Part shown: positions 24,497-40,090 of the stretch, in pieces | Position numbering within the stretch: position 1 is the first letter of the stretch | Layout of the letters: each line of letters begins with the position of its first letter | Source: Candidatus Altimarinota bacterium | Lineage (GTDB): Bacteria; Patescibacteriota; Gracilibacteria; JBDHUY01 | Reading direction: 5' to 3' | DNA length: 64,000 nt | NCBI GenBank assembly: GCA_039809385.1 | Contig: JBDHUY010000001.1 | Coordinates: 1-64,000 of the forward strand | The notes under the pieces: model-generated | Told to the model about the DNA's origin: nothing | What the model saw: the letters and a program-made list of their open reading frames with translations, nothing else | Databases searched by the model: none | Made by a program: the position numbers and the translations under genes

Positions 24497-24817
24497 ATTG
24501 TTTCTTTATATAAAGGTGATAGATAACGCTAGTGTATTATATCAAGTTCGATTTTAGTGACAAATTGTTTTGGCATTTTTTTTGATTTGCGTAACTAACG
24601 GCAAGGTCACCTTCCCTCGGGGATGTCTCTTTGTTGGAACAGGCTTTAAACCTGCTTCCGGACGTTTCTCGTAACTTCTGGGGTAGAAAATATATGCAAA
24701 AAGTTACTAGTGTCACTACCGGTACGTTCATAGCTCTACGATGATGTGCTATATAAAAAAAGCAATCGGAGCAATTGGTCCCAGCCAACAATGACAATGG
24801 AGCGTCTGCTAAAGGCT

Positions 24818-25840
24818 TCAGAGTTCTTCGTTCACCTTTATAACCACTTTCCCTCTGGCATGTCCCTCCTCCACATACCGGATCGCCTCAGGCACCTCAC
24901 TCAATTTGTAGGTTCGATCGATTACCGGCCGTATTTTCCCCTCTTCCAACAGGCCTTTCAGAAAAACCAGATCCTGCCGGTTCGGCTTTGATAGAATATT
25001 TCCTAATTGTTTCCCACCTTTTTTGGAAAGCATGGGCCCCAGGAGCATAGCCTGAAACATCTGGGCCGGTTCTCCCCCGGTCATGACATACGTTCCTTGC
25101 GGACGCAACGCGCGTTTGTAATCAAAAATGGAATGGTATCCATTCGTCCCTAGAATCAAGTCATACTGTTCCTTATTTTTCGTAAAATCCTCTTTGGTAT
25201 AATCGATCACCTGATCCGCTCCCAGCGTGCGCACCATGTCGACATTGCGCGTACTGCACACCGCCGTCACTTCCGCGCCCAACGCTTTGGCAATCTGTAC
25301 CGCAAAGGTGCCCACTCCGCCCGAGGCGCCGTTGATCAGGACTTTGTGCCCCTGTTGAATAGTTGTTTTATCGCGCAATCCCTTGAGTGCGGTTACAGCG
25401 GCCATCGGAACGGCGGCAGCTTCTTCGAACGATAAATTCGCAGGCTTGAGCACCAAGGCAGTTTCGGGAACAACGGCATATTCGGCAAACCCGCCGAAGC
25501 CACACAACGACAGATCTCCGAATACGTCATCCCCCGGCTTAAACTGGGTTATTTTTTTCCCCGTAGCAAGAACTTTTCCGGCAATATCCGCACCCAGAAT
25601 GGTATGTTTCGGTTTGAAAAAACCAAATCCCATCAAACGCATCAACGCCGGTTTGCCACGCAAAAGATGCCAGTCGGCCGCATTGACACCTACCGCGTGC
25701 ACCTGCACCAGGACTTGGTGCTCCTCTGTAATAACGGGCTTTTTGATCTCTTTGAGTTCGAGCACATCAGGAGAACCATATTGCAACGATACCATGGCTT
25801 TCATCTGGGTATGGCTATCAATAGGCGGAATAACGGTCAT
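24818..25840 (-). CDS. NAD(P)-dependent MDR-family oxidoreductase (quinone reductase-like)
   Basis: YGSPDVL, VN.ADW, G.D.AG, INGASGGVGTFAVQ, GHARGKVV. Confidence 0.93.
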   Translation of the reverse strand: MTVIPPIDSHTQMKAMVSLQYGSPDVLELKEIKKPVITEEHQVLVQVHAVGVNAADWHLLRGKPALMRLMGFGFFKPKHTILGADIAGKVLATGKKITQFKPGDDVFGDLSLCGFGGFAEYAVVPETALVLKPANLSFEEAAAVPMAAVTALKGLRDKTTIQQGHKVLINGASGGVGTFAVQIAKALGAEVTAVCSTRNVDMVRTLGADQVIDYTKEDFTKNKEQYDLILGTNGYHSIFDYKRALRPQGTYVMTGGEPAQMFQAMLLGPMLSKKGGKQLGNILSKPNRQDLVFLKGLLEEGKIRPVIDRTYKLSEVPEAIRYVEEGHARGKVVIKVNEEL

Positions 25841-26001
25841 AGGTTGGTGCTTTATCGGATAAAGGGAAAATAGTTACGTGGAAATATACTGTATAACCAG
25901 AAATATACCATATATCTCCCGAAACGTATGCACATTTTTGCGTTATATTTTTTACAATTACAGCCCCTGAACCTGTCCTTGAAACCGCCTGCCGGGAGCA
26001 A

Positions 26002-26030
26002 AAAAGAGGAAGCCTTTGGCTTCCTCTTTT
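26002..26030. terminator. Bidirectional intrinsic terminator after the DinB-family gene
   Basis: AAAAGAGGAAGCC-TTT-GGCTTCCTCTTTT. Confidence 0.88.
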
Positions 26031-26065
26031 AAACGATCCGTATCTTGCTTGTTATCATCCTTTTC

Positions 26066-26566
26066 TTAAAACGTCTCTCCCGGATTGGCATCTCGCGCGA
26101 GCCACAGATTGGCCGTGTTCAGCTCGGGACGACCCGCTACTTTCAAATACAAAAATACCTGCATGCGGTAGGCTACCAGCCCTTCAAGGATCAAATTAAG
26201 ATACCAACTGCTACGTTTCATCGTAACGCCGAAGACCTGAATCTCTTCGTTCAGTTTTTCGTCGCTGACCGAGCGCACATTGTCCACAACCTCTTTCTCC
26301 GCCGCTTCCAGATCAGCCAGAAAATTCGCTTCGCTGTAGACTTTGATATCCTCATCCATTTTCCCAAACAGACTCTGGTCGCCGGTACTAAGCACGCGAG
26401 CACACACGGCGGGACCGTGTACCAGAAAGCCGAGCACTTGGCGTAGGGTCCGCTGTTTCTCACTGGGTTTGTAGTCGTAGGATTCGGCAGGAATCTTGGA
26501 ATGCAGGTGCCGGATGATACGATACTCATGTTGTATTGCCTGGATCATCTCGTCGCGCGAAATCAT
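26066..26566 (-). CDS. DinB/YfiT-superfamily protein
   Basis: DYKP..KQRTL, YRMQ.FLYLK..G..ELNTANLW pattern. Confidence 0.75.
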   Translation of the reverse strand: MISRDEMIQAIQHEYRIIRHLHSKIPAESYDYKPSEKQRTLRQVLGFLVHGPAVCARVLSTGDQSLFGKMDEDIKVYSEANFLADLEAAEKEVVDNVRSVSDEKLNEEIQVFGVTMKRSSWYLNLILEGLVAYRMQVFLYLKVAGRPELNTANLWLARDANPGETF

Positions 26567-26754
26567 AGAAAAAAATTTAGAAAATAAATGACAACGCTTT
26601 TATTGTGCTCCCCGTTAAGCCGGTAAACAAGGTATTTTACCTTGTTTCTGGTGACCACTTCCTGCTGGCAGCAAGAAAAGAAACTATATATTTCAGGTTG
26701 GGACAAGAGGTGAAGGGTTCCTTAAAAAAATTATTCCCAACTGGCAAGGTTTGT

Positions 26755-26795
26755 TATAGTTTATAATTGACTATCAACTATAAACTATATATACT
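26755..26795 (+). promoter_or_regulatory. Sigma70 promoter TTGACT-17-TATACT overlapped by a 16-bp inverted-repeat operator
   Basis: TATAGTTTATAATTGA-CTA-TCAACTATAAACTATA (1 mismatch); -35 at 26767, -10 at 26790. Confidence 0.75.
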
Positions 26796-26900
26796 ATGAA
26801 AGAGATTTGAAACATCCATATCCTTGGATGTATTCGATTCATAGCAAGTATCGAGAGAAAAGGTATTATTTTACATCAGAGTCCTCCTTATTTTGGAAGC

Positions 26901-27884
26901 ATGAAAACCCAAACAGGCCACAATATACTCACATACATCCAAAAGCACCGACAGGTACGACCCAAAGAATTGCTGGAAGTGTTTTCGATTAGCAACCAGG
27001 CTCTGCACAAACAACTGACCAAACTGATGTCAAACGGACAGATTACCAAAGCCGGGACTTCCCCTGCTGTTTTTTATCTGCCTGTTTTTCCCCCGGCCGT
27101 TGAGACACGCGAAGTAAAGACGTTCGATCCGCAGACCGAAAACATCATCGAAGAGAATTTTATGTATATCTCGCCTGCGGGGCAGAAACAGAGCGGACTG
27201 AGCGGTTTTAGGCAGTGGTGTAGCGAACGCAACTTCGACATAGCACAGAAAAGTGCCGAGTACGTCCGGATTGTCGGACAGTACGAGAGTCTAAAAAAGA
27301 ACGGAGTAATCGATGCCAGCGAAAAGCTCAAACGCTCGTTTGCGGACGTATTTCTGGATAAACTTTTCTATATCGACTTTTACAGCGTAGAGGTCTTTGG
27401 AAAAACCAAACTGGGGCAGCTGATCCTGTTTGCCAAGCAGAGCCAAGACAAAAGCTTGATTCGGGAGATTCTGCCTGCGATAGAATCCCCCATCCGTACA
27501 TTGATACAAACGTATAAGATCGATGCCGTCGGCTTTATTCCGCCCACGATCAAACGCAGCGTCCAGTTCATGAAAGAGCTGGAGAAAAAACTCAATCTCC
27601 CGTTGCCTCCCATTCCCCTCGTCAAGGTAAAAGCCGCTGTCGTGGTTCCGCAAAAAACTCTTTCCAAGATCGCGGATCGGACCGAAAATGCGGCCAAGAC
27701 GATTATGGTCGACCAGAGTCGTCGGTATAAAAACATCCTGTTACTGGACGATGCGGTAGGATCGGGAGCCAGTCTGAACGAAACTGCCCGTAAAATACGG
27801 GAGAGAAATATTGCTTCCGGACAGATCATCGGGCTTGCCCTGGTGGGAAGTTTGAAGGGTTTTGAAGTGATTAGTGAAGTGTAA
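26901..27884 (+). CDS. wHTH plus ComF-like phosphoribosyltransferase-domain protein
   Basis: N-terminal HTH (ISNQALHKQL..L...GQI.K.G); PRPP-binding loop ILLLDDAVGSGASL. Confidence 0.85.
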   Translation: MKTQTGHNILTYIQKHRQVRPKELLEVFSISNQALHKQLTKLMSNGQITKAGTSPAVFYLPVFPPAVETREVKTFDPQTENIIEENFMYISPAGQKQSGLSGFRQWCSERNFDIAQKSAEYVRIVGQYESLKKNGVIDASEKLKRSFADVFLDKLFYIDFYSVEVFGKTKLGQLILFAKQSQDKSLIREILPAIESPIRTLIQTYKIDAVGFIPPTIKRSVQFMKELEKKLNLPLPPIPLVKVKAAVVVPQKTLSKIADRTENAAKTIMVDQSRRYKNILLLDDAVGSGASLNETARKIRERNIASGQIIGLALVGSLKGFEVISEV

Positions 27885-28503
27885 ATGTCTCCATAATAAG
27901 CACTTCCCCATCTCTGATCGCTTTGTATGGAATACCATGTTCGATACAATACGTAATCTCCTTTTCAATCAGAGCAGATTCGGGATGATTCGAATCCCAG
28001 TGCGGCATAAAAGCAAAATCCACGAATCCCAGCCCCTCCCAAATCACATCTGGCTGTTTTGGGTAGGGAGTATCGACCGGATCAACGATTGTATAAGCAT
28101 GTAAGTCGGGAGCCAGGACGCATCCGGCGGCGCTGTAGCCGGCATAGAGGAAATCAGCGTTTTTCCGGAAATCATGTAAGAGGTTATCAAGACCGCTCAG
28201 TCGCATCGCCTGTCGTAAAACAAAGACATTTCCGCCGCTGATAAAGATGGCACCGAGTTCGGCAAGTCTTTTCTCTAACGCATCGCGTTGCCCGAAATAG
28301 TCGCGCAGATCGATCATGCTAACCGCAAGACCGAGTGCACGGAGAGACTGCATGTCGTGTTCGTTCCGCTTAGTCCGTTTTTCCGGATCGGCTCCGGTGA
28401 AATCGCGCGCATTCGGGATATATCCGATTTTTCGCTGTGGCACGAACTCTTGTAATCGATCGGTCTGGTTTCCCAATTCATAGGAAGATAGGTAGAGTTT
28501 CAT
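27871..28503 (-). CDS. Peptidase E (S51)/class I glutamine amidotransferase-like protein
   Basis: MKLYLSSY, SGGNVFVL, YAGYSAA, PH motifs. Confidence 0.88.
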   Translation of the reverse strand: MKLYLSSYELGNQTDRLQEFVPQRKIGYIPNARDFTGADPEKRTKRNEHDMQSLRALGLAVSMIDLRDYFGQRDALEKRLAELGAIFISGGNVFVLRQAMRLSGLDNLLHDFRKNADFLYAGYSAAGCVLAPDLHAYTIVDPVDTPYPKQPDVIWEGLGFVDFAFMPHWDSNHPESALIEKEITYCIEHGIPYKAIRDGEVLIMETFTLH

Positions 28504-28526
28504 AGAGTAGAAAAAAAATCAGCAAA

Positions 28527-28925
28527 TTATTTAGATGGTTCTGCAGTAGATTCTTTTATAATTCTGGGGATCATCCATGGTGCAACTTTGCAAACTGATA
28601 TTGTTTTTTTCTGCTCCATTATTGCTTTACAAAGCCGATGGACACCATCTAAAATCTTCCATGAATCTCGAAAAAAATAGATATGGATCGGGTATTGCAT
28701 ATCGGCCCTTGTAATTTTTTCATAGTGACCAGATTGTTTTTCAGGATTACAAAGTAATTCCCGCAACGTAAGGTTCCAGTCATCGGTACCTTCTTTATCC
28801 AAATAGGCAATGTCAAGGTTTTGCTCCAGCTGCTCAATATCCATTTCTTCTGCAGCAATGTGTAAATTCCATATTTTTTCATCATCATATACAAATCCAA
28901 AATCTATCGCTGCGGGTCTGGGCAT
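28527..28925 (-). CDS. ParB/Srx-like N-terminal domain protein
   Basis: AD..YPI, ILDGVHRL.KA motif. Confidence 0.7.
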   Translation of the reverse strand: MPRPAAIDFGFVYDDEKIWNLHIAAEEMDIEQLEQNLDIAYLDKEGTDDWNLTLRELLCNPEKQSGHYEKITRADMQYPIHIYFFRDSWKILDGVHRLCKAIMEQKKTISVCKVAPWMIPRIIKESTAEPSK

Positions 28926-29029
28926 AGTTGTTACATAAATTAGTGGAAAAGACCATGTCATCCATTGTATCTTTGCTTTCGTTACCTTACCGCTCTATGG
29001 AGGAAAGATATCTGCATCTACGGCTCCCT

Positions 29030-29626
29030 TTAGGAGAAAAGATGCCGAGTACAGTTAAAACGTGTCATTTTATACTTATTGCTTTTGTAAATCTCAAAAC
29101 TAGTAATACTGGTATTCCCTAATCCCTCAATCGACTCGACTTCTGTATGCTTTTTCCCTGTAATAACTGCAATCAAGGCTCTACCGATATCGAAATGGCA
29201 GACAAACAAAACTGAATCGTTCTGATGTTTTACCATCATTCTTTGGAAAAAAAGCTCCGCTCTTCTATAAACATCCTGTATTGTTTCTCCATTTTTTGGT
29301 TGAATACGGACTGTATGAGTATCATTTGTTCCCCACCCCAGATCACTCTTTTTCTTACCCTGAAACTCGCCATAACATCTTTCTCTCAACTCCTGGACGA
29401 ATTCGAGACGTGTACCGGGATGAAACTCGACAATCTTCTTGGCGGTATCAGCAGCTCTATTCAAGTCACTGGAATAGATGTAGTCAAATGTTTCCGTTTT
29501 TAATCTCAAGGCAACTTTTTCTGCCTGCCTGATACCCTCAGCAGAAAGCGTCCCGGGTAAATGTCCCTGTAAAATACCGGATAGATTTTCTTCAGTTTCC
29601 CCATGTCTCGTAATGATAAGCTTCAT
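29030..29626 (-). CDS. Histidine phosphatase family protein
   Basis: RHGET, SSDL.RA..TA, LRER.YG, GE, VCH. Confidence 0.92.
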   Translation of the reverse strand: MKLIITRHGETEENLSGILQGHLPGTLSAEGIRQAEKVALRLKTETFDYIYSSDLNRAADTAKKIVEFHPGTRLEFVQELRERCYGEFQGKKKSDLGWGTNDTHTVRIQPKNGETIQDVYRRAELFFQRMMVKHQNDSVLFVCHFDIGRALIAVITGKKHTEVESIEGLGNTSITSFEIYKSNKYKMTRFNCTRHLFS

Positions 29627-29686
29627 AGAATAAAGGAATAGATGCATCTCCTTAACTTTCTGAAATGACCTGTTTTCTTAAATCTT

Positions 29687-30124
29687 TTACAAATATTCGA
29701 GCATCAAATACTTCAACTCGCCGACAGTTTCATCGTCAATAGAATCCCTTGACCATGTGGGTAGATTTCCAAAGCTTGTATCATTAAATACCCTATGCCC
29801 CAGTTTTCTTTCTGTTGCATATCTCGGAATACCGTGGAAATGAAGTTGATGAAGCGCATTACCGAGCTGGCAGTAGTTAAATCTGTCGGGTTTAAAGATT
29901 GGATTCACCAACAGAGAATTTTCGATTTCTTTACATACTTGCTGAAATTCGATCAATTCATCCGTTGTAAGTTCCGAAATTTTTTCTACGCCCTTTCTTT
30001 TGCAAAATAGAATATAACAGCCAAAAGTATGCTGATTATAGCTCACTTCCAACATCCAATATGTATATTCTTTGAGTACACCGTTACCGTGTTTACTTTC
30101 CGGATCATAAAATCTGGTAAACAT
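29687..30124 (-). CDS. HIT-family protein
   Basis: FNY..LGN...QLHFHGIPRY motif. Confidence 0.85.
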   Translation of the reverse strand: MFTRFYDPESKHGNGVLKEYTYWMLEVSYNQHTFGCYILFCKRKGVEKISELTTDELIEFQQVCKEIENSLLVNPIFKPDRFNYCQLGNALHQLHFHGIPRYATERKLGHRVFNDTSFGNLPTWSRDSIDDETVGELKYLMLEYL

Positions 30125-30260
30125 ACTACTGATGATCAAAAGTTAATGACCTATTGTGGGCATATCTGTTAAAGAGAACGACCCGATTATATCGAAGCAT
30201 TTTTCAAGAAACAATGATTTATCGTTGTACCGCTACTGTAGAAAACGTGTAATTTTTCAT

Positions 30261-30689
30261 TCACTCCGCCACCAGCCCGGGCGATTTTTCGGCGATCCGG
30301 ATAACTTTGGCCAGGCCTTCCATATCCAGATCTTCCAATTTTTTGAACCGGACACAACTTTTACCAACACTCACCTTCCCTAGTAGGTCTTTATACGTTT
30401 CGGCGATATATTTTCCTTTTTCCAACGCGCACACATACAGGCTCATGTAATTTTTCTGGCTGGCCAGCGAAATAACCGGCCAGTCGATGATCTCTTTTTT
30501 ATAATTTTTATATTTGAAACCGCCATATCCGAGCATGTTATAGGAAAAATGCGGTTTGAGCGAGGGGGCCGTTTTTTGGATAAATTCATGCAAAAACCGG
30601 ATCGGCTCAAGGCGTTCCGACGGCAGCATCTGGAAATATTCCTCGACGGATGTGGCTTTGACGGGCTTGAACATGTTCATAGATTTCAT
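30261..30689 (-). CDS. DUF1801 (YdhG-like) domain protein
   Basis: MLGYG, WPVI.LASQKNY.SLY, GKSCVRFKKLEDL. Confidence 0.88.
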   Translation of the reverse strand: MKSMNMFKPVKATSVEEYFQMLPSERLEPIRFLHEFIQKTAPSLKPHFSYNMLGYGGFKYKNYKKEIIDWPVISLASQKNYMSLYVCALEKGKYIAETYKDLLGKVSVGKSCVRFKKLEDLDMEGLAKVIRIAEKSPGLVAE

Positions 30690-30768
30690 GCGGCTAAGCG
30701 GATAAATTATTATACATTTGTCTGATGAAGATATGGAAAACAGGCGCTCGTATTCTGAACGCAGATTA

Positions 30769-31203
30769 CTAAACAACAAACGGAATAATGCGCTTGGTTT
30801 TACGCGCATACTCGACATACTCGGGATAACGTTGACGCAGGAACTGCTCTTCGCTCACGATGCGAATAAGTGTTACGATGGTCATAATGACACTAACGAT
30901 CACGGTGGTAAGAGAAGGATGGCCCAGCACGCTTGACCAGATAAGCACCAAGACGATAGCGTAAATAGGATGACGGATAAACCGGTACGGACCGGTGCGG
31001 AGCAATTTTCCAGCTTTTGTCTCGGCACCCGTGCTGAACTGACCGACCTGGAAGATGCGCCGCGACCAGATGCCCAGGGCGAGAGCCGCTATCTGAATTG
31101 CGATAATCCATGGAGAGGCGGAAAGCAAATTTCCGGTTAACAGCAACAATAGGACTGCGGCCAAAAAGATCGGAAAGAAAAATTTGGAGATGAGCTTGAT
31201 CAT
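30769..31203 (-). CDS. Isoprenylcysteine carboxyl methyltransferase-family membrane protein
   Basis: L..TGPYR.IRHP.Y, EE.FL...Y..Y.EY...TKR.IP. Confidence 0.9.
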   Translation of the reverse strand: MIKLISKFFFPIFLAAVLLLLLTGNLLSASPWIIAIQIAALALGIWSRRIFQVGQFSTGAETKAGKLLRTGPYRFIRHPIYAIVLVLIWSSVLGHPSLTTVIVSVIMTIVTLIRIVSEEQFLRQRYPEYVEYARKTKRIIPFVV

Positions 31204-31227
31204 GGGAATATCCTTCGGTGTAATGTA

Positions 31228-31641
31228 TTAGTTGGCTTCGGTATATTTTTTGAAATTATCGAGAAAGGCCTGCCAGCCGGATCGTTGCATATCGTGCGGG
31301 TTCTGATCTTCGGCCTCAAACGTCTCAAGGATATGAACTCCCTCCGGCGTTTCGCTAAATTGTATTTGTACTTGCCGACCGTCCGACATCTTAAATTCCA
31401 GCAACGTAGGCTCTTGTACTACGGTATATGTCCCTTCAAAATCAAAAGCAGCGCTTTTATCTTTGGCGAACATATGCGTCTTGAAATTGCCTTCCACTGT
31501 TAGATCATTGTTGATCGCCTGGGCGCCCCAATCGGGAGTAGCAAAGGCCCAGCCCGGTATATGTTCGACCGAATTCCAATACTCCCACACTTTGGCGGGT
31601 GAGGCGTTAACCGTAGTCTCGACGGTGATAGGATTTTTCAT
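31228..31641 (-). CDS. SRPBCC/AHSA1-like protein
   Basis: KVW.YW...EHI..W.FA..DW, FDFEGTY, Q..GWQA.LDNFKKY. Confidence 0.9.
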   Translation of the reverse strand: MKNPITVETTVNASPAKVWEYWNSVEHIPGWAFATPDWGAQAINNDLTVEGNFKTHMFAKDKSAAFDFEGTYTVVQEPTLLEFKMSDGRQVQIQFSETPEGVHILETFEAEDQNPHDMQRSGWQAFLDNFKKYTEAN

Positions 31642-31699
31642 AGCTGGCGGGGTTAGAGGGGGAAAAGTTGATAATGTAACCGTTAGCGGTCGGAAGCAG

Positions 31700-32095
31700 T
31701 TAGCTCACCCGCTTAGTACTCGAACGAGCCTTCGGTGCGCTTTTTGCCTGGCGATTCAGCGCCACGGCGGCTCGGATGAGGTTCTGGAAGGCCTTGTCGT
31801 AGATCTTGTCGCCTTCGTGGATAACTATAGCGCGATAGGTATTGATGAGAGCGTTCGGATCATGATCCTTGAGCAGGTGGCCCTTGGCAAATGTCAATCT
31901 GAGGTGATTTTTGTAGGTTTCGCCGGTACAGATCATCCCATCGTGCGACCATACCAGCACTCCGGCCGGGTTGGTGGGTTTTCTCCATTTTACTTCCTCG
32001 ATCGCCTCCGGATCGGCTTGCTGTATCAGCGCGGAGATGCGGGACAGTGTCGCTGCGCGCCAGTCGGACGGAATGGTTGTTGTAGCTTTTTTCAT
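31700..32095 (-). CDS. DUF1801 domain protein
   Basis: DWR..TL, EEVKWRKP, WSHDG.ICTGETYK..LTFAKG. Confidence 0.9.
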   Translation of the reverse strand: MKKATTTIPSDWRAATLSRISALIQQADPEAIEEVKWRKPTNPAGVLVWSHDGMICTGETYKNHLRLTFAKGHLLKDHDPNALINTYRAIVIHEGDKIYDKAFQNLIRAAVALNRQAKSAPKARSSTKRVS

Positions 32096-32100
32096 AGTTT

Positions 32101-32418
32101 CTATGATTTCGATTTCTTGTTTCGTTTATCCAGTATTCCTCGCACCGACGGACTGATGGCTTTGTCTTTACGGTGAATACAGCCCAGCCAGCAGCACGGC
32201 CGACGCATGCCTTCTTTGAGTTCCGATACAACCCGTCCGACGTGCTCGGCTCGTGTTTCCGCCTTCTTGGGGTACTCCACCCAGCAGATCCACTCGTTGC
32301 GCGCGAGCGGTGTCAGGTCCTCCCATAGGACAAGAGCCGCTTTGTCAGAGGTTAATGCTTTTTGTAGATCGGCTGGCATGTTGTGCACCGTACCGGCTGA
32401 AATGGATTTTGTAGTCAT
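32101..32418 (-). CDS. YdeI/OmpD-associated family protein
   Basis: P.DL..AL, W..LTPLARNEWICWV, RRPCCW.GC.HR. Confidence 0.9.
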   Translation of the reverse strand: MTTKSISAGTVHNMPADLQKALTSDKAALVLWEDLTPLARNEWICWVEYPKKAETRAEHVGRVVSELKEGMRRPCCWLGCIHRKDKAISPSVRGILDKRNKKSKS

Positions 32419-32617
32419 ACCGTTAGTATAAAGTTTTTCTGGGTACAGTTAAACAGAAAATTTTTCTCGAAATTGTCTCAATACCTGCTTCAGAGTTATC
32501 TCTGTGATCACACGTTGCTATTTGCTTTTATATGAAGGTCCCAACTCCATCGAGAAAACCAATGGTTCAGGTTCTTTCAGAAATCTGAACCCGCAGAGGG
32601 GTCTTACTTATACGCAA

Positions 32618-33211
32618 TTATTTCAGCTTATGTTTTAGCCTCTCGTTCAAGCTATCTAAAATTCGAGGTCCAATATCGATTACCCATTGTGTCGCACGAT
32701 GATCTAATTCCTCTCCATGTGCTGCCCTATTTAACGTTACAATCATATCAGCCAAAGCAGCCCGTTCTTGGTTTGAAATAATATCTTTTTGATGTAAGTC
32801 ACGCATTAGGAAGGAGACCCCACCTTGTCTCTTTGAACTAATACCATTTTGTTCTGCAAGTGCACGGAGACTCTTTTCTATTTCAATTCGCAAAACTACT
32901 AGAGCAAGGCTTGGGTCGGATTCTGCAAAATCTAGAAAAGCATATTCAGTTGTTATTTTTCTATTAGTTTCATTAATAAGACCTGCATTTTGGGCTTCCC
33001 GTTTTACACGCTCCAAATCTTGGAACTCAAGCTTTAGACCACCAGGAAATTCAAGGGATTTGAACAATGGTGCTAACCATGGCACTACTGCAACTATGAC
33101 CAAAGTTAAAGTGATTGCATCAATCTTGAGATCAGGCCAAATTATATGGACAGTAGCAATGGCTATTGCAGCAAGGGTGATTGATATTTGAACTTTTATA
33201 GCACTTTTCAT
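32618..33211 (-). CDS. Membrane protein with two N-terminal TM helices and a possible HEPN/DUF4145-like C-terminal domain
   Basis: LRIEIEK.LR ... LNRAAHG pattern; AT-rich relative to its neighbours. Confidence 0.65.
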   Translation of the reverse strand: MKSAIKVQISITLAAIAIATVHIIWPDLKIDAITLTLVIVAVVPWLAPLFKSLEFPGGLKLEFQDLERVKREAQNAGLINETNRKITTEYAFLDFAESDPSLALVVLRIEIEKSLRALAEQNGISSKRQGGVSFLMRDLHQKDIISNQERAALADMIVTLNRAAHGEELDHRATQWVIDIGPRILDSLNERLKHKLK

Positions 33212-33349
33212 CTAAACCAGATTTTATTAAGGCTAAAAAATTTACGCTAACTCATTTTTCATGCGAAGTATATTCGTAATACCCCATATCTGTCCAACCG
33301 ATAGGCGGAAAACGTATCAAAAAAGTATGATTTCAAGTTTTTCTTTTTA

Positions 33350-33996
33350 CTATTCAGTCTCCGCCTCCCACGCTTGCAACGGTGGCCCACCACGGTTGTA
33401 GGCGGTTTCATCAATAACTGCTAAGTAATCAAAGTCGGTAAAACTCTGCGCCGTGAGCGGAAAGTAGGTCGGGTTCTTCTGGCTGCCCGAGCGAATGGGA
33501 AGAGTGGCAATTTCGGAAGCAGCCAATCTTTTTCCCTGATAGGTAGGAATAAATCGGATTGGCCCTGGTGTTGCCGTCAATTGAGCTTCCAGCGTTCCGG
33601 CTTCGGGCGTCCCGATGCCATTGTCATCCGAAGTACCGAGGGCAGTACCGATTACAGCATACCGTTTTCCCAGCATTTCATGCAGCTGCGATCCAGCCGG
33701 CCACCACGTTATCAGTTCGTGGCCCAGTTGCCATTGAGCCTTTCCTTTTTTCAGATGACTGTTGTGCGCAAAAGCAAAAACTTTTCCTCTCTCCTGCTCG
33801 CGGGACACGATGTAGAGGAGATTATCCGCCTGCAGCATATCGCGAATCCCCAGGCGCTCGGCATAGGTAGTCGTTTTAGCCATCGAAGCGTGGAAGTCGA
33901 GGAGTCCCCGCGCGACTCTCGCATATTGCAGGGCCTCCGAAAAACGATCCCGACCGGTCTGGGCGATCAGCTCGGGACGACGGATCTCCAATTCCT
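33350..33996 (-). pseudogene. 5'-truncated erythromycin esterase (EreA/TIKI-like) family gene
   Basis: RD..QADNL, FAHNSHL, AG..L...LG.RY.VIG, FD motifs are the C-terminal half only; the apparent ORF start lies inside the repeat element. Confidence 0.8.
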
Positions 33997-34093
33997 CCTC
34001 TGGTTCCAAGTTGCACTTGGAACCCAACTGTTATGCGCATAACCACCGTTTGTGTGCCAAAACATCGCAGTTCCAGGTACAACCTGGAACTAG
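33997..34093. repeat. REPIN-like element copy 1
   Basis: GGTTCCAAG-TTGCA-CTTGGAACC, central GTTATGCGCATAAC, AGTTCCAGG-TACAA-CCTGGAACT; nearly identical to copies 2 and 3. Confidence 0.9.
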
Positions 34094-34146
34094 TATCAAG
34101 TAGTTTTGATTTGATATTAATTCGAACGAATAAACTGAGCTCTTTC

Positions 34147-34677
34147 TCACCTTACAAGACCATGAGCGATTTGCAATACCTGATTAGCAACTTCATTGAC
34201 TGGTCTATTTGTATCGACGGGAATTGCGCCCATTGCAAGCATCTCCTCCGCATAGGTTTCCGCACGTTTGATAATTTGCTGCATAACGTTTTTGTCCTTC
34301 CCGAAACTGTTATCGGTTCGGTCCTCGATCCGTTTGGTAAAAACAGCTGGGCTGCATTGAAGTAATATAATCTTATCGAAGAGAGGAAGTACCTCTGTTT
34401 CGTTAGTAGCCATCCCAAGTACAAAACCAATCGTATCTTGTGTATTAAGTAAGCGTTTCAGATAATCAACATCACACACCCAGTCATGTGCATCCACAAA
34501 TTCCTTGGTCATTTCAGCATCTTTACCGCCGTGCTTTTCTCCGGTCTTCTGATGAACCCATGAGCAGAGTCCATCAACCTCATCGATACTAATCGCGAGG
34601 TAACCTAGTCTGGTTAGCTCGTCTGCTAGAGTCGTTTTGCCAGTGCCAGAGACACCGGTAATGTAAATTTTTATCAT
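34147..34677 (-). CDS. P-loop nucleotide/shikimate-kinase-like protein
   Basis: YITGVSGTGKTT, D.D, FDK..LL, R...R..N.FGK. Confidence 0.85.
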   Translation of the reverse strand: MIKIYITGVSGTGKTTLADELTRLGYLAISIDEVDGLCSWVHQKTGEKHGGKDAEMTKEFVDAHDWVCDVDYLKRLLNTQDTIGFVLGMATNETEVLPLFDKIILLQCSPAVFTKRIEDRTDNSFGKDKNVMQQIIKRAETYAEEMLAMGAIPVDTNRPVNEVANQVLQIAHGLVR

Positions 34678-34776
34678 GGATTTTTCTCGAGTTATGGGAA
34701 GGGATTTCGAGCCAATTTTATTTTGGTTTCTCGTATGGCCGCTTCAAGTATACCGATGTTTATATCTTTAACCTCT

Positions 34777-34869
34777 CCGGTTCCAAGTTGCACTTGGAAC
34801 CCAACTGTTATGTGCATAACCACCGTTTAAGTGCCAAACATCGCAGTTCCAGGTACAACCTGGAACTAG
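34777..34869. repeat. REPIN-like element copy 2
   Basis: Same tripartite hairpin structure as copy 1. Confidence 0.9.
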
Positions 34870-34886
34870 CCTAAAATATCCAAAAA

Positions 34887-35630
34887 TCAATTTATGATTT
34901 CTCCTTTGTTGTTTGCTAGCCGTTCCCGCCATTTTTGGCGTTCCTCGGGCGTAATTTTGACCCAATCGGTTGCTTCGCCGACGATCTTCAACGGTGCTTG
35001 CGAGCGATACGAGCGGGTCGGGTTTCCGGGAAAGTATTTGTTCGTCACGTTTGGATCATTTTCAAAACTATCTGTCGGCTCAACGATATACACACGTTCC
35101 GGCCCATCGCCCTTTGCCAACGCAGCAGCCAGTCCCGCCCCATTCACTTGGGCGGTAAAATAAATGTGATTCATCTTGAGGTCTGACTGGTAATTAGAAC
35201 TGCCCCCGGCTGTCAACAAATCTCCGACTTCCAAATCTGCCTTTGTTCCATGATAAAAAGGGCCTTGGTCGGAAGGGGTATCCTGAAACGAAGTGGCTAA
35301 GGAAGAATATCTTTTCGCTTTATCGGGATCACCCAGTTCTGCATAGCAGGTGGAGATGTCTGAATAAAGAGGAGGGAAAGCGCTTTGTACCGTGGAGTCA
35401 TTTATGTTTAATCCAAGCTGGAGAGTCGTCTCGAGCCATTGCAATCGGTCGGAAACATCGTTTTGAGATCGGGCGACATGATAGGCCGTAATGAATTTTT
35501 CAAAGTCGTAGGTCGCTTCATGCCAGGCTTGAAGAAACACCTTGCCCGCTTCTGCGGGTTTCCCTTGTTTTTCAATGGCTATGCCCTGAAGACAGAGTTG
35601 AACGATATGGTTGTTGGGGCTGAATTCCAT
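34887..35630 (-). CDS. arr: NAD+:rifampin ADP-ribosyltransferase with N-terminal TPR-like extension
   Basis: GPFYHGTKADL, SNY....MNHIYFTA, YIVEP...FE.DPNVT.K.FPGNPTRSYRS..PL. Confidence 0.93.
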   Translation of the reverse strand: MEFSPNNHIVQLCLQGIAIEKQGKPAEAGKVFLQAWHEATYDFEKFITAYHVARSQNDVSDRLQWLETTLQLGLNINDSTVQSAFPPLYSDISTCYAELGDPDKAKRYSSLATSFQDTPSDQGPFYHGTKADLEVGDLLTAGGSSNYQSDLKMNHIYFTAQVNGAGLAAALAKGDGPERVYIVEPTDSFENDPNVTNKYFPGNPTRSYRSQAPLKIVGEATDWVKITPEERQKWRERLANNKGEIIN

Positions 35631-35693
35631 GTTCTCAATGGATATGGGTAACAAGTTTTTCTGTGGGGCAGATTCTTTGATGTAAGGATTTCT

Positions 35694-36167
35694 TTACACA
35701 TCAGTTCCTGCCGTATTACCAAGTTCTTCGGCCAGCCCGATGAGAATGCCTTCTGGCCCACGGATATAGCAGAGCCGATAGATATCTTGGTAATTGACGA
35801 CTTCCCCAACCAGTTGGGCACCGTGTTTGCGGAGCCGGGCGAGGGTATCGTCGATATCCTCCACGGTGAACATGACACGTAGGTAGCCCAAAGCGTTCAC
35901 CGGGGCATGGCGGTGGTCAGAGATTACAGACGGAGCAAGGAATCGGGACAATTCAAGCCGGCTATGGCCGTCCGGGGTGATCATCATGGCAATCTCGACG
36001 CGCTGGTCGCCCAGTCCGGTGACGCGACCGGCCCATTCTCCTTCTACCATGGCTCGTCCTTCAAGCTTCAGCCCAAGCTCGGTGAAAAAAGAAATAGCCT
36101 GATCGAGATCTTCTACCACGATGCCGACGTTGTCCATCCTCTTCAGATTGGCTTCTCTTGACCTCAT
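35694..36167 (-). CDS. VOC/glyoxalase family protein
   Basis: RMDNVGIVV.DL, TPDGHSRLEL, YRLCYIRGPEG. Confidence 0.92.
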   Translation of the reverse strand: MRSREANLKRMDNVGIVVEDLDQAISFFTELGLKLEGRAMVEGEWAGRVTGLGDQRVEIAMMITPDGHSRLELSRFLAPSVISDHRHAPVNALGYLRVMFTVEDIDDTLARLRKHGAQLVGEVVNYQDIYRLCYIRGPEGILIGLAEELGNTAGTDV

Positions 36168-36265
36168 ATAGTTGTGCTTATTTGAATAAACTTTCAGCGA
36201 AAACACCCAACGCCGTAACGATTTTCACTACAACTTGGACACTCGCCTTCTTTTCTGGCGGTATA

Positions 36266-36362
36266 CCTCTGGTTCCAAGTTGCACTTGGAACCCAACTGT
36301 TATACACATAATCACCGTTTACGTGCTAAAACATCGTAGTTCCAGGTACAATCTGGAACTAG
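36266..36362. repeat. REPIN-like element copy 3
   Basis: Same structure; central palindrome degenerate, G-T wobble in the right stem. Confidence 0.9.
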
Positions 36363-36391
36363 CATGAGCGATATCAAATCTTGCTTTATCT

Positions 36392-36814
36392 TTATGCTGG
36401 ATTGAATTCGACCGTCCACTCGATACCGTACTTGTCCCGAAACATGGCAAAGTAGGTACCCCACGGACTTTCCGCCATGGGCATTTCAACTGTCCCGCCC
36501 GCTGAGAGTCCGTTGAAAATCCTGTCTGCTTCTTCTTTGCTTTCTGCAGTAACGGCGATCTTGGATCTATTTTCGTTCTCGCTTACTCGTCCCATGCTCT
36601 CCGGAACGTCATTTGCGATAAGTAGGTTGTTGCCGATAGGCAGCGCAATGCGCAGTATTTTATTGGCTTCATTTTCGGGTACCGGAAACTCGGCGTTTGT
36701 GATGTCTTTGAAACGGGTAATACCGGCGAATTCGCCGCCGAAAACGGATTTGTAAAACGTAAACGCTTCTTCGGCATTTCCGTTGAAGTTAATGTAAGGG
36801 TTTATGGTTGTCAT
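36392..36814 (-). CDS. PhnB/VOC family protein
   Basis: INPY.NFNGNAEEAF.FY.SVFG, PWG.YF.MF.DKYGI.W. Confidence 0.92.
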   Translation of the reverse strand: MTTINPYINFNGNAEEAFTFYKSVFGGEFAGITRFKDITNAEFPVPENEANKILRIALPIGNNLLIANDVPESMGRVSENENRSKIAVTAESKEEADRIFNGLSAGGTVEMPMAESPWGTYFAMFRDKYGIEWTVEFNPA

Positions 36815-36889
36815 AATGAGTTTGGTTAATTCATACTACGTACTCTAGCAATTCCTATGGTCGATTTCAATTTTTCGTTTTATTTCAGA

Positions 36890-37477
36890 TTATTTTGATC
36901 CAATCGGTATTGTCACAATTCTCTCAAAATAGAATTCGTCATTCGGGACGGCATACTCAATCGAACCACATTGAAATGCACCTTCCGGAACGCTCCCTTG
37001 CAACTCTTTCAGCAACTCCGTTGTGCGTTCTACCGTAATAAACTCTGCGATAGTCATGTGCGGCGCACGATCTTTTCGTGTCAACGGATTGCCCCTAAAC
37101 AGCGAAGTCGAGTGAATTACATGACGCAGGTCAAAGAACTCTTTTTCGGGAGTAATGGTATAACAAACTCCGGGATAAGGAGGGAAACTTCGCAACGGTC
37201 CATATTGTATTTCAAATGGTTGGACACGAGACAAAGCTTCTTTCAATTCTACAAGTTGTTCATCGGTCAATGGGCCGGTGAGAGGTTCGCTCAAACTAAT
37301 GTGTGCCTGGCAATAATCGGCAGATGTTGGGTCGAACTCCCGCCTCAATTCGTCTACGGGTTCGACAACCCCGTTGGGGGGAAAAATATAAAAGGCGCCG
37401 TATCGATACTCAAATTGCCACTCTTCCCAATTCTCAGTGTTCTGCTCGTATTCAATCTTGTGAAAATTATTCATCAT
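36890..37477 (-). CDS. 2H phosphoesterase (2'-5' RNA ligase-like)
   Basis: Two HxS/T motifs: AHISL and PHMTI. Confidence 0.88.
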   Translation of the reverse strand: MMNNFHKIEYEQNTENWEEWQFEYRYGAFYIFPPNGVVEPVDELRREFDPTSADYCQAHISLSEPLTGPLTDEQLVELKEALSRVQPFEIQYGPLRSFPPYPGVCYTITPEKEFFDLRHVIHSTSLFRGNPLTRKDRAPHMTIAEFITVERTTELLKELQGSVPEGAFQCGSIEYAVPNDEFYFERIVTIPIGSK

Positions 37478-37556
37478 ATGATTAGGGCAAGAGTTCTTCG
37501 ATAAAAACAGATTGAATTTTTCGACAAAGAATGGCTGGCGAGCCGGGGCGGGGTGG

Positions 37557-37581
37557 CAAGACCGGTGCCATCAGCCACTCG
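37557..37581 (-). repeat. Direct repeat of the tRNA-Ser D-arm to anticodon segment
   Basis: CAAGACCGGTGCCATCAGCCACTCG matches 37643-37667 at 24/25. Confidence 0.85.
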
Positions 37582-37590
37582 ACTTCTTGC

Positions 37591-37678
37591 TGGCGGAGAG
37601 GACAGGATTCGAACCTGCGGTACCTTGCGGTACTCCGGTTTTCAAGACCGGTGCCATCAACCACTCGGCCACCTCTCC
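37591..37678 (-). tRNA. tRNA-Ser (anticodon TGA), CCA encoded
   Basis: GGAGAGG/CCTCTCC acceptor stem, CCGGT-CTTGAAA-ACCGG anticodon arm, long variable arm, GTTCGAATC T-loop, G discriminator. Confidence 0.97.
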
Positions 37679-37727: not shown

Positions 37728-38447
37728 CTAGCGGGAAACATCGGAATCAGAAGCCACTTGCAATAATGGAATAATAACGGACAAAACCGATGGGTCGTTG
37801 CCGATGAAATCGCGCAGCGCCTCGTTCATGTTTGGCAATGTCACAACATGAAAATATAACGTACGTAACAAATGGATGGTGCCGAGCATGACCACCAGGG
37901 AAGGCATTGTATGCGATACGGCGTTAGAGAATTCCTCGCCGGATACCTCAATGAAAAGAACACAGGCAACCATGTGCATAAATCCAAGAGACAAATTTCC
38001 CACCTTACACCAATAATTCGCGGCAACCTCAAAGCCGTATTCCGCGCAAAAACGTACAAAAGATTCATCGTGAAAACGCAAATTCTGATAGATACGCTTA
38101 TATACCTCCAGGCGATCAACCTTCCCATTCAGATAATATGGCAGTTCGTTCAAAACCGCTTGGACTTGTTTAGTATACAGAGACTCGGCATGCCGCAGAT
38201 ATGAAACTCGAACTTCTGAAATCCGGCCAGAAGTACAGGAGATGTGTTGAAGAAGAGTCACAAAACGATTCCGCAGGGAAAAGAAGAGAGGCAAAAGATC
38301 CGCTTTTCGGGTTAACAAAGATTCGCGAGCTAGAACCGAAGCAAAACGTCCTTCAAACAATGCCGCGTGTGAAGAGAGATCCTCTACCACCCGGAGGTCA
38401 TCGTCAGATTCCGAAAAACGTTCGGGCGACAAGACCGGAAAATCCAT
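37728..38447 (-). CDS. Hypothetical membrane protein
   Basis: ORF from MDFPVLSPE with two C-terminal hydrophobic segments. Confidence 0.55.
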   Translation of the reverse strand: MDFPVLSPERFSESDDDLRVVEDLSSHAALFEGRFASVLARESLLTRKADLLPLFFSLRNRFVTLLQHISCTSGRISEVRVSYLRHAESLYTKQVQAVLNELPYYLNGKVDRLEVYKRIYQNLRFHDESFVRFCAEYGFEVAANYWCKVGNLSLGFMHMVACVLFIEVSGEEFSNAVSHTMPSLVVMLGTIHLLRTLYFHVVTLPNMNEALRDFIGNDPSVLSVIIPLLQVASDSDVSR

Positions 38448-38599
38448 AGACAAATGATATGGTACGGCAAGAGTGTACTGTACCCAAAAAATTCCGTGAA
38501 GCGAAAAATCAGCAAAATTGCTCGCCTTGGGGCAAAAAATATTTATAATAAGACCGATTTGGTTCCCGTTTATTTTCACGATTATCTTTAAAAAACTGT

Positions 38600-40090
38600 A
38601 TGACCACCGACCGAGACGAACGCAGCGTGCGCATCGCAAAAATGCAGAAACTGCGCGAAAACGGCATCAATCCCTATCCGGAAAAATTCGATAAAACGCA
38701 TACGTTAGCCGAGTGTCCGGGACTTCCCGAAGGCACTCCCGTCAAAATCGCCGGACGGATCGTGTTATCGCGGGACATGGGCAAAATCATCTTTGCCCAT
38801 CTGCTCGACGAAACCGGCAAACTACAGATCGCCCTCAGCATCGACCACAGCGGTCAGGAACAGCTGGATTTTTTTCTGACCTACTTCGATCTGGGCGATT
38901 TCATCGGGGTCGAGGGCGAACGATTCACCACCAAAAAAGGCGAAGCCTCGATTCTGGTAAAAAAAGTAACTTTTCTGGGAAAAGCGCTGCGTCCGCTTCC
39001 CGAGAAATTTCACGGCCTGCAGGATAAAGAAACCAAATATCGCCAGCGGTATCTTGATTTGATCACCGACGACGAAACCCGCCGGCGGTTTCAGTTTCGC
39101 GGCCGCTTTATCAAAGCGCTGCGCGATTTCTACGAACAGGAAGGTTTTGTGGAAGTAGAAACCAGCATCTTGTGCAACTCCCCTAGCGGTGCTCTTGCCA
39201 AGCCGTTTTCCACGCATCATAACAGTCTCGATCTGGATGTTTTCTTACGCATTGCCCTGGAAATCCCGCTGAAAGAACTCGTGATCGGCGGTTACGAAAA
39301 AGTCTTCGAGATTGGTAAATGTTTCCGCAACGAAGGCATGGATCCCTCGCATCTGCAGGAGTTTACCATGCTGGAACACTATGCGGCCTACTGGAACTAT
39401 GAAGATAACATGCGTTTTACCGAAAAGATGTTCGCCTACCTGCTCGAGAAAGTGACCGGGAGTCTAAAAGTGATGATCCCCGATCACGACGGCAATCTGA
39501 AAGAGGTCGATTTTACGCCCCCCTGGCCGATCGTGACTATGCGCGATCTGATCAAAACCGATAGCGGTATCGATATCAACGAGATCGAGAATGTCGAAGC
39601 GCTGCGAAGGGTTATCCGGGAAAAAGGGATCGACGTGGAAGAGATGGGAAACCTGGAATACGGCAACCTGGTCGACAGTTTGTACAAAAAAGTTTCGCGC
39701 CCCAAACTGGTCGGGCCTATGTTTATGATCGGGCATCCGATCGAGCTCTCGCCCTTGGCACGCAAAAATGATGATAATCCGCGCATCGTAGACCGTTTTC
39801 AACTCGTGGTGAACGGCTGGGAGATCGTGAATGCGTACAGCGAGCTGGTCGATCCGATCGACCAGGAAGAGCGTTTTGACCAGCAGTCTAAGGCCCGCGA
39901 AGGCGGCGACGCCGAAGCGCATGTCAAAGATAGTGACTACGTCAAAGCGATGGAATACGGTATGCCACCGATCTCTGGCTGGGGCATGGGCATCGACCGG
40001 ATCGTAGCACTGCTGACCCAGCAGGGAAATTTGCGCGATGTGGTTCTGTTTCCGCTGCTGAGACCGTTACAGGAAGAAGAGGAGGGATAA
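38600..40090 (+). CDS. lysS: Lysyl-tRNA synthetase (class II)
   Basis: YRQRYLDL, GA.AKPF.THHN, FRNEG.D.SH..EFTMLE, ELVDPIDQ, MEYGMPP. Confidence 0.98.
   Translation: MTTDRDERSVRIAKMQKLRENGINPYPEKFDKTHTLAECPGLPEGTPVKIAGRIVLSRDMGKIIFAHLLDETGKLQIALSIDHSGQEQLDFFLTYFDLGDFIGVEGERFTTKKGEASILVKKVTFLGKALRPLPEKFHGLQDKETKYRQRYLDLITDDETRRRFQFRGRFIKALRDFYEQEGFVEVETSILCNSPSGALAKPFSTHHNSLDLDVFLRIALEIPLKELVIGGYEKVFEIGKCFRNEGMDPSHLQEFTMLEHYAAYWNYEDNMRFTEKMFAYLLEKVTGSLKVMIPDHDGNLKEVDFTPPWPIVTMRDLIKTDSGIDINEIENVEALRRVIREKGIDVEEMGNLEYGNLVDSLYKKVSRPKLVGPMFMIGHPIELSPLARKNDDNPRIVDRFQLVVNGWEIVNAYSELVDPIDQEERFDQQSKAREGGDAEAHVKDSDYVKAMEYGMPPISGWGMGIDRIVALLTQQGNLRDVVLFPLLRPLQEEEEG

Follow-up and report, generated by a model that had tools for sequence, protein, structure and literature searches.

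An array of sixteen small detoxification- and resistance-like genes 3' of tRNA-Ser(UGA) in a Gracilibacteria genome: a probable flexible island with REPINs, and not an integron

Introduction

Short genes that follow one another head to tail, mostly single-domain, poor in promoters and heterogeneous in composition, are characteristic of chromosomal integrons and of clusters of attC sites lacking an integron integrase (CALINs), and integron cassette pools are enriched in VOC enzymes as far as the available text of PMC10661359 goes. Arrays of flexible genes are also known from the tycheposon islands of Prochlorococcus, in which, according to the accessible parts of the preprint (bioRxiv 10.1101/2020.12.28.424599), such genes lie beside full-length tRNAs (tRNA-Ser(tga) being among seven island tRNAs), partial tRNA copies persist as scars in a streamlined host genome, and the majority of islands contain neither an element nor an integrase at a given moment. 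A third described system is that of the REP-associated tyrosine transposases (RAYTs) and REPINs, non-autonomous double-hairpin repeats made of two inverted repetitive extragenic palindromic (REP) sequences: in the accessible text of PMC3116915, PMC3337134 and bioRxiv 10.1101/119735, a single RAYT gene is flanked by REP hairpins, and the REPIN copies are dispersed, extragenic and of a sequence family private to the genome. The subject of this study is an array of 16 genes 3' of a tRNA-Ser(UGA) in Candidatus Altimarinota bacterium, a member of the Candidate Phyla Radiation (CPR) in the class Gracilibacteria; it lies in a stretch of 64,000 nt (hereafter the window; assembly GCA_039809385.1, contig JBDHUY010000001.1, positions 1 to 64,000 of the forward strand).

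The array is not an integron, and we consider it probable, though with appreciable doubt, that it is a flexible additive genomic island seated 3' of tRNA-Ser(UGA) that was later colonised and partly remodelled by REPINs. An island of this type would collect small single-domain genes, of detoxification, resistance-like and stress types, that are in wide circulation across phyla; several separate events would have brought them, rather than a single block transfer or an integron, the vehicles being tRNA-targeting integrative elements or recombination that left no integrase behind. After their arrival, REPINs would have colonised three intergenic gaps, presumably mobilised by the single RAYT transposase of the genome, and one of them would mark the point at which an erythromycin esterase gene (ere) was truncated by a REPIN-associated deletion. 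We infer, then, a serial build-up with the tRNA as its seed. REPIN-RAYT systems and additive tRNA islands are known kinds, of which this array would be a further case, and in concept it is closest to the additive tRNA-seeded islands.

The genomes of CPR bacteria are thought to be minimal and stable, and this one gives 10 kb and two smaller arrays to promiscuous detoxification- and resistance-like genes. Resistance-like genes have been recorded in CPR genomes, including a small rifamycin share (0.62%) and erythromycin esterases; where the available text of that survey (PMC8651080) deals with rifampin, it names rifampin phosphotransferase and not arr, and no genomic context, tRNA linkage or arrays appear in that text.

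The array and its genes

The minus strand of 27871-37477 holds 16 co-oriented open reading frames (ORFs) of 105-255 aa each, head to tail. The first gene begins 113 nt past tRNA-Ser(tga), on the other side of which lies lysS, and the distal end, a peptidase S51 gene, is convergent with an HTH-phosphoribosyltransferase (PRTase) gene. The original prediction, made from the letters and translated ORFs alone, had described these short minus-strand genes and named their families, and the ORFs, the Pfam and NCBIfam profiles by which we assigned families, and ARAGORN bore it out. From the tRNA outwards, and all on the minus strand, the features are:

37591..37678, minus: tRNA-Ser(UGA), the proximal island border (ARAGORN; Rfam RF00005, 63 bits)
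37557..37581, minus: partial tRNA-Ser copy of 25 nt (24/25), tRNA positions 12-36, 9 nt after the tRNA
36890..37477, minus: 2H phosphoesterase (2_5_RNA_ligase2; Pfam PF13563, 54 bits)
36392..36814, minus: VOC2, a VOC protein of the YjdN/3-dmu-9_3-mt type (Pfam)
36266..36365, minus: REPIN r1, two inverted 10-bp REP hairpins (repeat and folding analysis)
35694..36206, minus: VOC1, VOC/glyoxalase-like (Pfam); true start probably some codons downstream of the GTG
34887..35630, minus: arr, NAD+--rifampin ADP-ribosyltransferase (NF033144, 143.3 bits vs a cut-off of 130; Pfam Arr-ms, 152 bits)
34774..34873, minus: REPIN r2 (repeat and folding analysis)
34147..34677, minus: AAA_18 P-loop kinase (Pfam), bracketed by REPINs r2 and r3
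33997..34096, minus: REPIN r3, adjoining the truncation point of the ere fragment
33350..33996, minus: erythromycin-esterase C-terminal fragment (Pfam PF05139, profile positions 149-358 of 358)
32618..33211, minus: AT-rich ORF of 197 aa, possibly DUF4145/HEPN-like (no Pfam match at 1e-3; weak HEPN and DUF4145 matches)
32101..32418, minus: YdeI/OmdA (Pfam)
31700..32095, minus: DUF1801 (b) (Pfam)
31228..31641, minus: AHSA1/SRPBCC (Pfam)
30769..31203, minus: PEMT/ICMT-like membrane methyltransferase (Pfam), absent from the original prediction
30261..30689, minus: DUF1801 (a) (Pfam); start set at an internal ATG, homologs aligning from residue 46-47
29687..30139, minus: HIT-like protein (Pfam)
29030..29647, minus: histidine phosphatase, branch 1 (Pfam)
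28527..28961, minus: ORF of 144 aa without a Pfam family
27871..28503, minus: peptidase S51, PepE-like (Pfam)

The erythromycin-esterase fragment lacks about 150 N-terminal residues, so falls short of a full-length Ere domain, and is the sole Ere match in the genome. The base composition of the array is heterogeneous, as had been claimed: the G+C content at third codon positions (GC3) runs from 0.27 to 0.65, which among 1474 crude genome ORFs corresponds to percentiles 1 to 98, with the 197-aa AT-rich ORF at the low extreme (0.27, 1st percentile). Gene shortness is the stronger anomaly, the compositional spread being moderately unusual. The mean length of 170 aa stands at the 0.2nd percentile of 1094 runs, each made up of 16 successive ORFs no shorter than 100 aa. 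Co-oriented runs of at least 16 genes number 3 among 527 in the genome, and the orientation of the array agrees with the direction of replication suggested by GC skew. Promoter-like sites show no excess (20 vs 19.9 in shuffles).

Absence of integron parts

The whole assembly, which is 95% complete, yielded no integron integrase: the top match to TIGR02249 (87.6 bits vs a cut-off of 265) fell on a Xer-like gene of contig 2, apart from this there was a single tyrosine recombinase match, a weak one on contig 3 (33.6 bits on PF00589), and the remaining recombinase matches lie on contigs 3 and 13. A scan for attC-like core pairs returned none in the array at four thresholds, against 0.1-1.1 in shuffles, and the plus strand of the 10 kb holds only 7 RYYYAAC and 8 GTTRRRY words. 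Seven of the 15 intergenic gaps are shorter than 70 nt (5, 23, 24, 39, 58, 63 and 68 nt) and therefore leave no room for an attC at those junctions, and Rfam at gathering thresholds yielded nothing beyond the tRNA in the searched stretch. Because there is no IntI and no attC-like site, because of these seven short gaps, and because the regular repeats proved to be REPINs tied to a RAYT, the array is not an integron. The original prediction had been right that neither intI nor a regular attC could be recognised, and had nonetheless called the array integron-like, a description that has to be given up. It was the gene spacing, the missing IntI and the tracing of the repeats to the genome's own transposase that told integron and look-alike apart.

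The resemblance to chromosomal integrons and CALINs is real in respect of co-oriented, short, mostly single-domain and promoter-poor genes, heterogeneous composition and VOC content, but the array differs from them in having no IntI, no attC and about half of its gaps too small for one, and in that its regular repeats belong to another system. A degenerate integron (CALIN), its attC sites too divergent for a simple scan, would explain the cassette-like gene sizes, the shared orientation and the VOC genes, for which the available text of PMC10661359 records enrichment in cassette pools; set against the lack of IntI in the assembly, the zero core-site pairs among so few core words, the seven gaps too short and the tRNA as sole Rfam match, that explanation deserves almost no credence. 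The further claim, that the families of the array are typical of gene cassettes, could be upheld for the VOC enzymes on the strength of that same text.

REPINs and the RAYT transposase

Direct repeats of about 100 nt follow VOC2, arr and the kinase, the three copies being 90-96% alike; these and the 25-nt tRNA copy had gone unnoticed in the original prediction. Each repeat consists of two inverted 10-bp hairpins of the form GTTCCARGT-N3-ACYTGGAAC and folds, as single-stranded DNA, with a z of about -5. When up to 3 mismatches are allowed, the genome has 27 occurrences of the hairpin motif, 22 of which have no more than 2, and changes in the stem are compensated (AAGT/ACTT, AGGT/ACCT, ATGT/ACAT, AGAT/ATCT). 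The only Y1_Tnp locus of the genome, an ORF of 216 aa on contig 2, scored 101 bits on NF047646 (REP-associated tyrosine transposase, cut-off 80) and contains the HIH and YIHQNP motifs; a sequence search of the PDB gave a weak match to TnpA-REP (4er8, E 0.41). This RAYT gene is flanked by hairpins on its 5' side (C2 139927-139947) and its 3' side (140543-140563), with more copies on both sides. Owing to the double inverted hairpins, the compensated stems and the copies that flank the only RAYT gene, the array repeats are identified, by sequence, as REPINs of the genome's own RAYT system, which is a known kind. The RAYT locus (contig 2, 139.58-140.75 kb) adjoins lepA and includes about five REPIN/REP copies, and the true start of the gene is probably an internal ATG.

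As in the described REPIN-RAYT systems, a single RAYT gene is flanked by REP hairpins here, and the elements of two inverted REPs are dispersed between genes and private to the genome. The REP hairpin did not occur in 1.12 Mb of other organisms' loci, a further 0.67 Mb gave two matches, both non-palindromic and with 3 mismatches, and REPIN-like direct repeats were absent from the arrays of four relatives (L017, L021, L208, L231). A search with an nhmmer model returned about 12 full REPIN copies in the genome, a ranking biased toward the three array copies from which the model was built. Five of these surround the RAYT gene, and the other seven lie within three arrays of resistance-like genes, namely the one studied here and two on contig 4, at 45 kb and at 100 kb. 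Weaker copies or single hairpins stand beside housekeeping genes (RNase Y and Pth on C6; LepA near the RAYT). The system thus differs from the REPINs of Pseudomonas and enterobacteria, for which the accessible text cites hundreds of copies, and from known REPIN-RAYT systems generally in that its copies are concentrated in accessory gene arrays and its host is a CPR-type bacterium; a literature search on REP-associated tyrosine transposases in Patescibacteria found no work on the subject.

REPIN r3 abuts the truncated ere, and the listed start of the fragment's ORF lies inside the repeat, and for these reasons we infer that a REPIN-associated deletion is the most likely cause of the loss of the N-terminal part. 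A REP hairpin followed by a T-rich tail (34068-34092 after the kinase and 36337-36361 after VOC2) scored as intrinsic-terminator-like, and judging by these sequences the REPINs may double as terminators here.

The two arrays on contig 4 are both co-oriented. The first (44.9-48.2 kb) consists of tRNA-Met(cat), a REPIN, an APH-family phosphotransferase, a TehB-like methyltransferase and a YbaK/tRNA-editing-domain protein. The second (99.0-102.8 kb) consists of an ArsR-type HTH, AHSA1, a REPIN, a VOC (bleomycin-resistance-like), a REPIN, a further VOC, a PF10706 protein and a DNA methylase; its second VOC is YjdN-like and 44% identical to VOC2, its PF10706 protein is aminoglycoside-2''-adenylyltransferase (ANT(2''))-like, and a GmrSD-type restriction gene lies upstream. 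RAYT-like genes are common in the class, NF047646 passing its cut-off in 39 of 151 class genomes and often in many copies. The RAYT and DUF1801 matches of several class genomes contain 1-4 in-frame TGA codons, which suggests, from the sequences, TGA recoding in part of the class.

Foreign origin of array genes

Horizontal origin is best documented for arr. Its protein carries an N-terminal extension of about 125 aa (35263-35630) without a Pfam match, and all 80 of the best 80 arr loci match residues 1-247 (two rows 1-246 or 2-247), at a protein identity of 68-77% in 79 rows and 61% in one. The homologs in these 80 loci come from Cyanobacteriota, Bacteroidota, Chloroflexota, Ignavibacteriota, Pseudomonadota, Actinomycetota and Bacillota, and two are from named Patescibacteria; by its alignments, Arr appears to be a conserved two-domain subfamily that occurs in numerous phyla and on plasmids. 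Nucleotide identity between arr and its counterparts on six cyanobacterial plasmids is 74-78%. LysS, by comparison, shows 57-64% identity to its counterparts in six class relatives and does not exceed 66% among 80 metagenome loci, and whereas arr reaches 78% nt identity to the cyanobacterial plasmid genes, lysS reaches 68% to the same-family genome G001. The horizontal origin of arr is well supported at the sequence level, because of this cross-phylum identity (68-77% aa, and 74-78% nt to plasmids), whereas LysS stays at or below 66% in relatives. In a quick maximum-likelihood tree, Arr clusters with other CPR copies inside a mixed cyanobacterial and Bacteroidota gene pool: it groups with L112 (bacterium), a Candidatus Uhrbacteria metagenome-assembled genome (MAG) and a 'Patescibacteria group' MAG, with SH-aLRT values of 90, 90 and 98, the last fork alone being starred.

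Of 201 class genomes, 2 have a member of the Arr family; for the Ere family the count is 3 of 151, two of them over the cut-off. VOC1 is 80-81% identical at the protein level to copies that stand beside arr in Ignavibacteriales and Bacteroidales MAGs, and 77% identical at the DNA level to a Sinorhizobium plasmid, Sinorhizobium and Rhizobium together making up 121 of its 184 matching records. DUF1801b has a 69% nt match on haloarchaeal plasmids, and VOC2 is 71% identical (aa) to a Chitinophagaceae MAG protein; megablast of the array against plasmids gave no match. Foreign affinity and rarity are thus documented by sequence comparison for arr, and less fully for VOC1 and ere. The idea that the array had accreted from different donors therefore stands for arr and VOC1 and gains from the rarity of Arr and Ere, while few of the genes show a donor signal.

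The tRNA link

Genes of the array families also follow tRNA-Ser(UGA), in the same orientation, in four other families of the class: YdeI in G038; DUF1697, YdeI and SnoaL in G059; YdeI and VOC in G004; VOC and histidine phosphatase in G024. Exact repeats of the tRNA 3' end were found downstream of this tRNA in G001 (15 nt, at 100 nt) and G059 (14 nt, at 2.2 kb). In three other CPR genomes (L110 and L115, the two named Patescibacteria, and G036), arr itself lies 131-216 nt 3' of a co-oriented tRNA; the tRNAs upstream of arr are Trp (L110 3792-4820), Asp (L115 777-1730) and Val (L107 9624-10296). In L110 (Uhrbacteria) an exact 16-nt direct repeat, containing the tRNA 3' end, stands on either side of the insert, and upstream of the tRNA there is an IS30-like transposase gene. 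In the remaining 78 arr loci no co-oriented tRNA comes closer than about 850 nt. A leader shared upstream of arr was considered and rejected, since in the alignment only L110 and L115 are alike and neither resembles this genome.

The features that mark integrase-mediated tRNA islands are found here in part: the tRNA is at the border, and there is neither an integrase within the array nor a distal repeat of the tRNA 3' end. A blastn-short search with the tRNA found only the 25-nt copy of its 5' half (positions 12-36), possibly a recombination scar or the relic of a second tRNA. The array shares with the tycheposon islands the flexible genes beside a full-length tRNA, here a tRNA-Ser(tga) again, the partial tRNA copy and the streamlined genome. 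It is unlike them in that no tycheposon-type integrase or replication module lies in or near it, in that its sole tRNA fragment is the 5' half and not a 3' part, and in that its cargo is detoxification- and resistance-like rather than concerned with nutrient uptake. The tRNA-linked hotspot that had been proposed for this site is partly supported, by the arrays after tRNA-Ser(UGA) in the four families named above; the flanks of the tRNA in the class at large and the DUF1801 loci, described below, speak against it. DUF1801 genes as a generally tRNA-linked family had to be rejected, tRNA density around them being at background; a tRNA was within 500 nt in 4 of 40 loci, with no consistent orientation.

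The end of contig 3 (177.0-179.6 kb) carries tRNA-Gln(ctg) with, behind it, a serine recombinase (178227-178655) and a weak match to a tyrosine recombinase (179020-179577), and this may be an integrative element at a tRNA.

Relatives and population data

We compared 40 genomes of the same class (0.7-2 Mb), one of which, G001, is of the same family. The gene order of the array is common to none of them. Synteny of the lysS-tRNA-Ser-PRTase interval had been proposed as a check; no order was conserved and the closest lysS locus had no array, though these relatives are distant. G001 is fragmented and 65-70% identical in DNA (one 77-base match at 79%); both flanks of the array match it, but the eight matching window segments lie on ten different short contigs, and a synteny test with this genome failed because of the low identity and the scatter. 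At the closest lysS locus (L025, LysS 66%), tRNA-Ser(UGA) again stands beside lysS and is followed by a sulfatase gene and no array gene; the L025 ORFs beside the tRNA have no homolog in the studied genome. A scan of 80 metagenome LysS loci revealed no close relative (best 66%), 79 of the 80 had no tRNA-Ser beside lysS, and the only array gene among them was one weak HIT match (L036).

Array genes do recur in small clusters of the relatives, at 48-79% identity. YdeI/OmdA is 70% identical (aa) in G019, 60% in G059, 53% in G038 and 48% in G004; VOC2 is 79% identical in G008, where it lies directly 3' of tRNA-Leu, and 68% in G019. The G019 cluster, beside gltX, contains HD, DUF2200, DUF1801, VOC, DUF1697, YdeI, RibD_C and more, and G126 has VOC1 at 79%, with DUF1801 and VOC near tRNA-Asn.

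Four runs, belonging to two studies (one of activated sludge, 2024, and one of wastewater, 2021), have contigs in which pieces of the array are present without differences, and the best-matching run may be the source sample of the assembly. Their presence in activated-sludge and wastewater metagenomes gives the array some interest for environmental resistome work. In run X1 the depth is even across flanks and array. Since this depth is even, the flanks match G001 and the REPINs tie the array to contigs 2 and 4, the array belongs to this genome. The contigs of the runs show no joint by which much of the array would be passed over, and some array bins are without cover in X5 and X6; as contig data, neither of these counts as evidence.

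One contig of run X2 (1067 nt, depth 3.65) runs through 35715-36270 and then 34779-35289, the two parts sharing 33 letters. This junction, 36270->34779, is a backward step of 1492 nt between REPINs r1 and r2, and is what would be expected of a circle or a tandem copy of a module of arr and VOC1. Logan contigs are built from 31-letter words. Given the depth of 3.65 and the exact repeat of 33 nt at the junction, the contig is no less likely to be an assembly chimera.

Weighing the explanations

A number of findings weigh against the additive island, or against one of its parts. In composition, the GC3 spread of the array is only at the 94th percentile among the 1094 runs, and the codon usage of 15 of its 16 genes falls inside the 9th-99th genome percentile. 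A donor affinity can be claimed from sequence for only 3-4 of 16 genes, the DNA search against plasmids giving no donor signal for the remaining ones. As to the tRNA, in 17 of 19 unselected class tRNA-Ser(UGA) flanks the nearest 6 kb are free of array-family genes, and both exceptions come from a single family; L112, of the same Arr clade, has no tRNA within 4 kb of its arr; and the 40 DUF1801 loci have 10 tRNAs in 246 kb, a background density. No match to the tRNA 3' end at up to 5 mismatches in 21-23 nt was found in 24001-37590, and there is no recombinase in or beside the array. The attC scan relied on a simple in-house script (RYYYAAC...GTTRRRY pairs with complementary arms) and not on IntegronFinder. 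The searched collections hold no close relative, so that gain within the lineage is deduced and not observed. Lastly, 46 of 151 class genomes have DUF1801, and there are clusters of a comparable kind at a distance from tRNAs (G019, beside gltX), and because of both, part of the array may be old stock of the lineage.

Carried to its end, that last point would make the whole array an old, vertically inherited stress-gene cluster, the foreign look of which reflects slow evolution of small enzymes. The frequency of DUF1801, the similar clusters in G019, G059, G004, G024 and G126, the mostly ordinary codon usage, and the difference-free contig pieces in runs of 2021 and 2024 all speak for it, yet Arr and Ere are rare in the class, arr is closer to cyanobacterial plasmids than lysS is to its counterpart in a same-family genome, the order is common to no relative, and the ere gene is truncated, so we regard such a cluster as unlikely. 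Somewhat more plausible, though still unlikely, is that the 10 kb came in once, en bloc, on an integrative element targeting tRNA-Ser, the integrase and distal att being deleted later. The position at a tRNA border, the tRNA fragment right after it, the direct repeats of the tRNA 3' end in relatives, the uniform orientation and the tight packing would all follow from this, and the serine and weak tyrosine recombinases 1.1-1.9 kb from tRNA-Gln on contig 3 demonstrate that tRNA-adjacent recombinase genes exist in this genome. What separates the additive island from a single arrival is the range of GC3 within 10 kb, the differing plasmid affinities (arr nearest to cyanobacterial, VOC1 to rhizobial and DUF1801b to haloarchaeal plasmids), the absence of a distal or internal tRNA repeat, and the different subsets of these families in relatives.

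The REPINs themselves could be given a larger part, in that direct-oriented copies bracket modules of one or two genes (VOC1 and arr between r1 and r2, the kinase between r2 and r3), which the RAYT or recombination between REPINs would excise, amplify and move. RAYT and REPINs would then form an integron-like device, a hairpin and HUH-transposase route to cassette mobility distinct from IntI/attC. Outside the RAYT locus, 7 of 7 strong full-length copies lie in the three resistance-like arrays, ere is truncated at r3, and the X2 junction is of the expected form; but that junction is one low-depth contig for which a chimera is at least as likely, REPINs commonly occupy any tolerant intergenic gap and weaker copies here lie by housekeeping genes, the arrays of relatives lack such repeats, and the seeding of the nhmmer model biases the ranking. 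We therefore think both the cassette system and the device it would amount to very improbable. Were they real, the recurrence of arr immediately 3' of various tRNAs elsewhere in the CPR might be a second facet of such traffic in cassettes. The array, for which we prefer the additive island, offers two leads on gene uptake in such genomes: the 3' flanks of tRNAs as landing sites of arr in CPR genomes, and the concentration of REPINs in accessory arrays.

Neighbouring and family-less reading frames

Between tRNA-Ser and lysS, over about 0.9 kb, lies a minus-strand ORF of 303 aa without a family (37728-38639) that overlaps the lysS start; the AT skew over it is like that of plus-strand genes, and it is a candidate ORF only. 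Within the array, the 197-aa ORF has a 41% identical paralog on contig 6 (69968-70600) and a DUF4145-like lead from a protein atlas. For the 144-aa ORF, the leads from that atlas are unnamed clusters with a ParB_N trace, and a 32% identical paralog lies on contig 3 (162916-163398), 75 nt 3' of tRNA-Ala(cgc).

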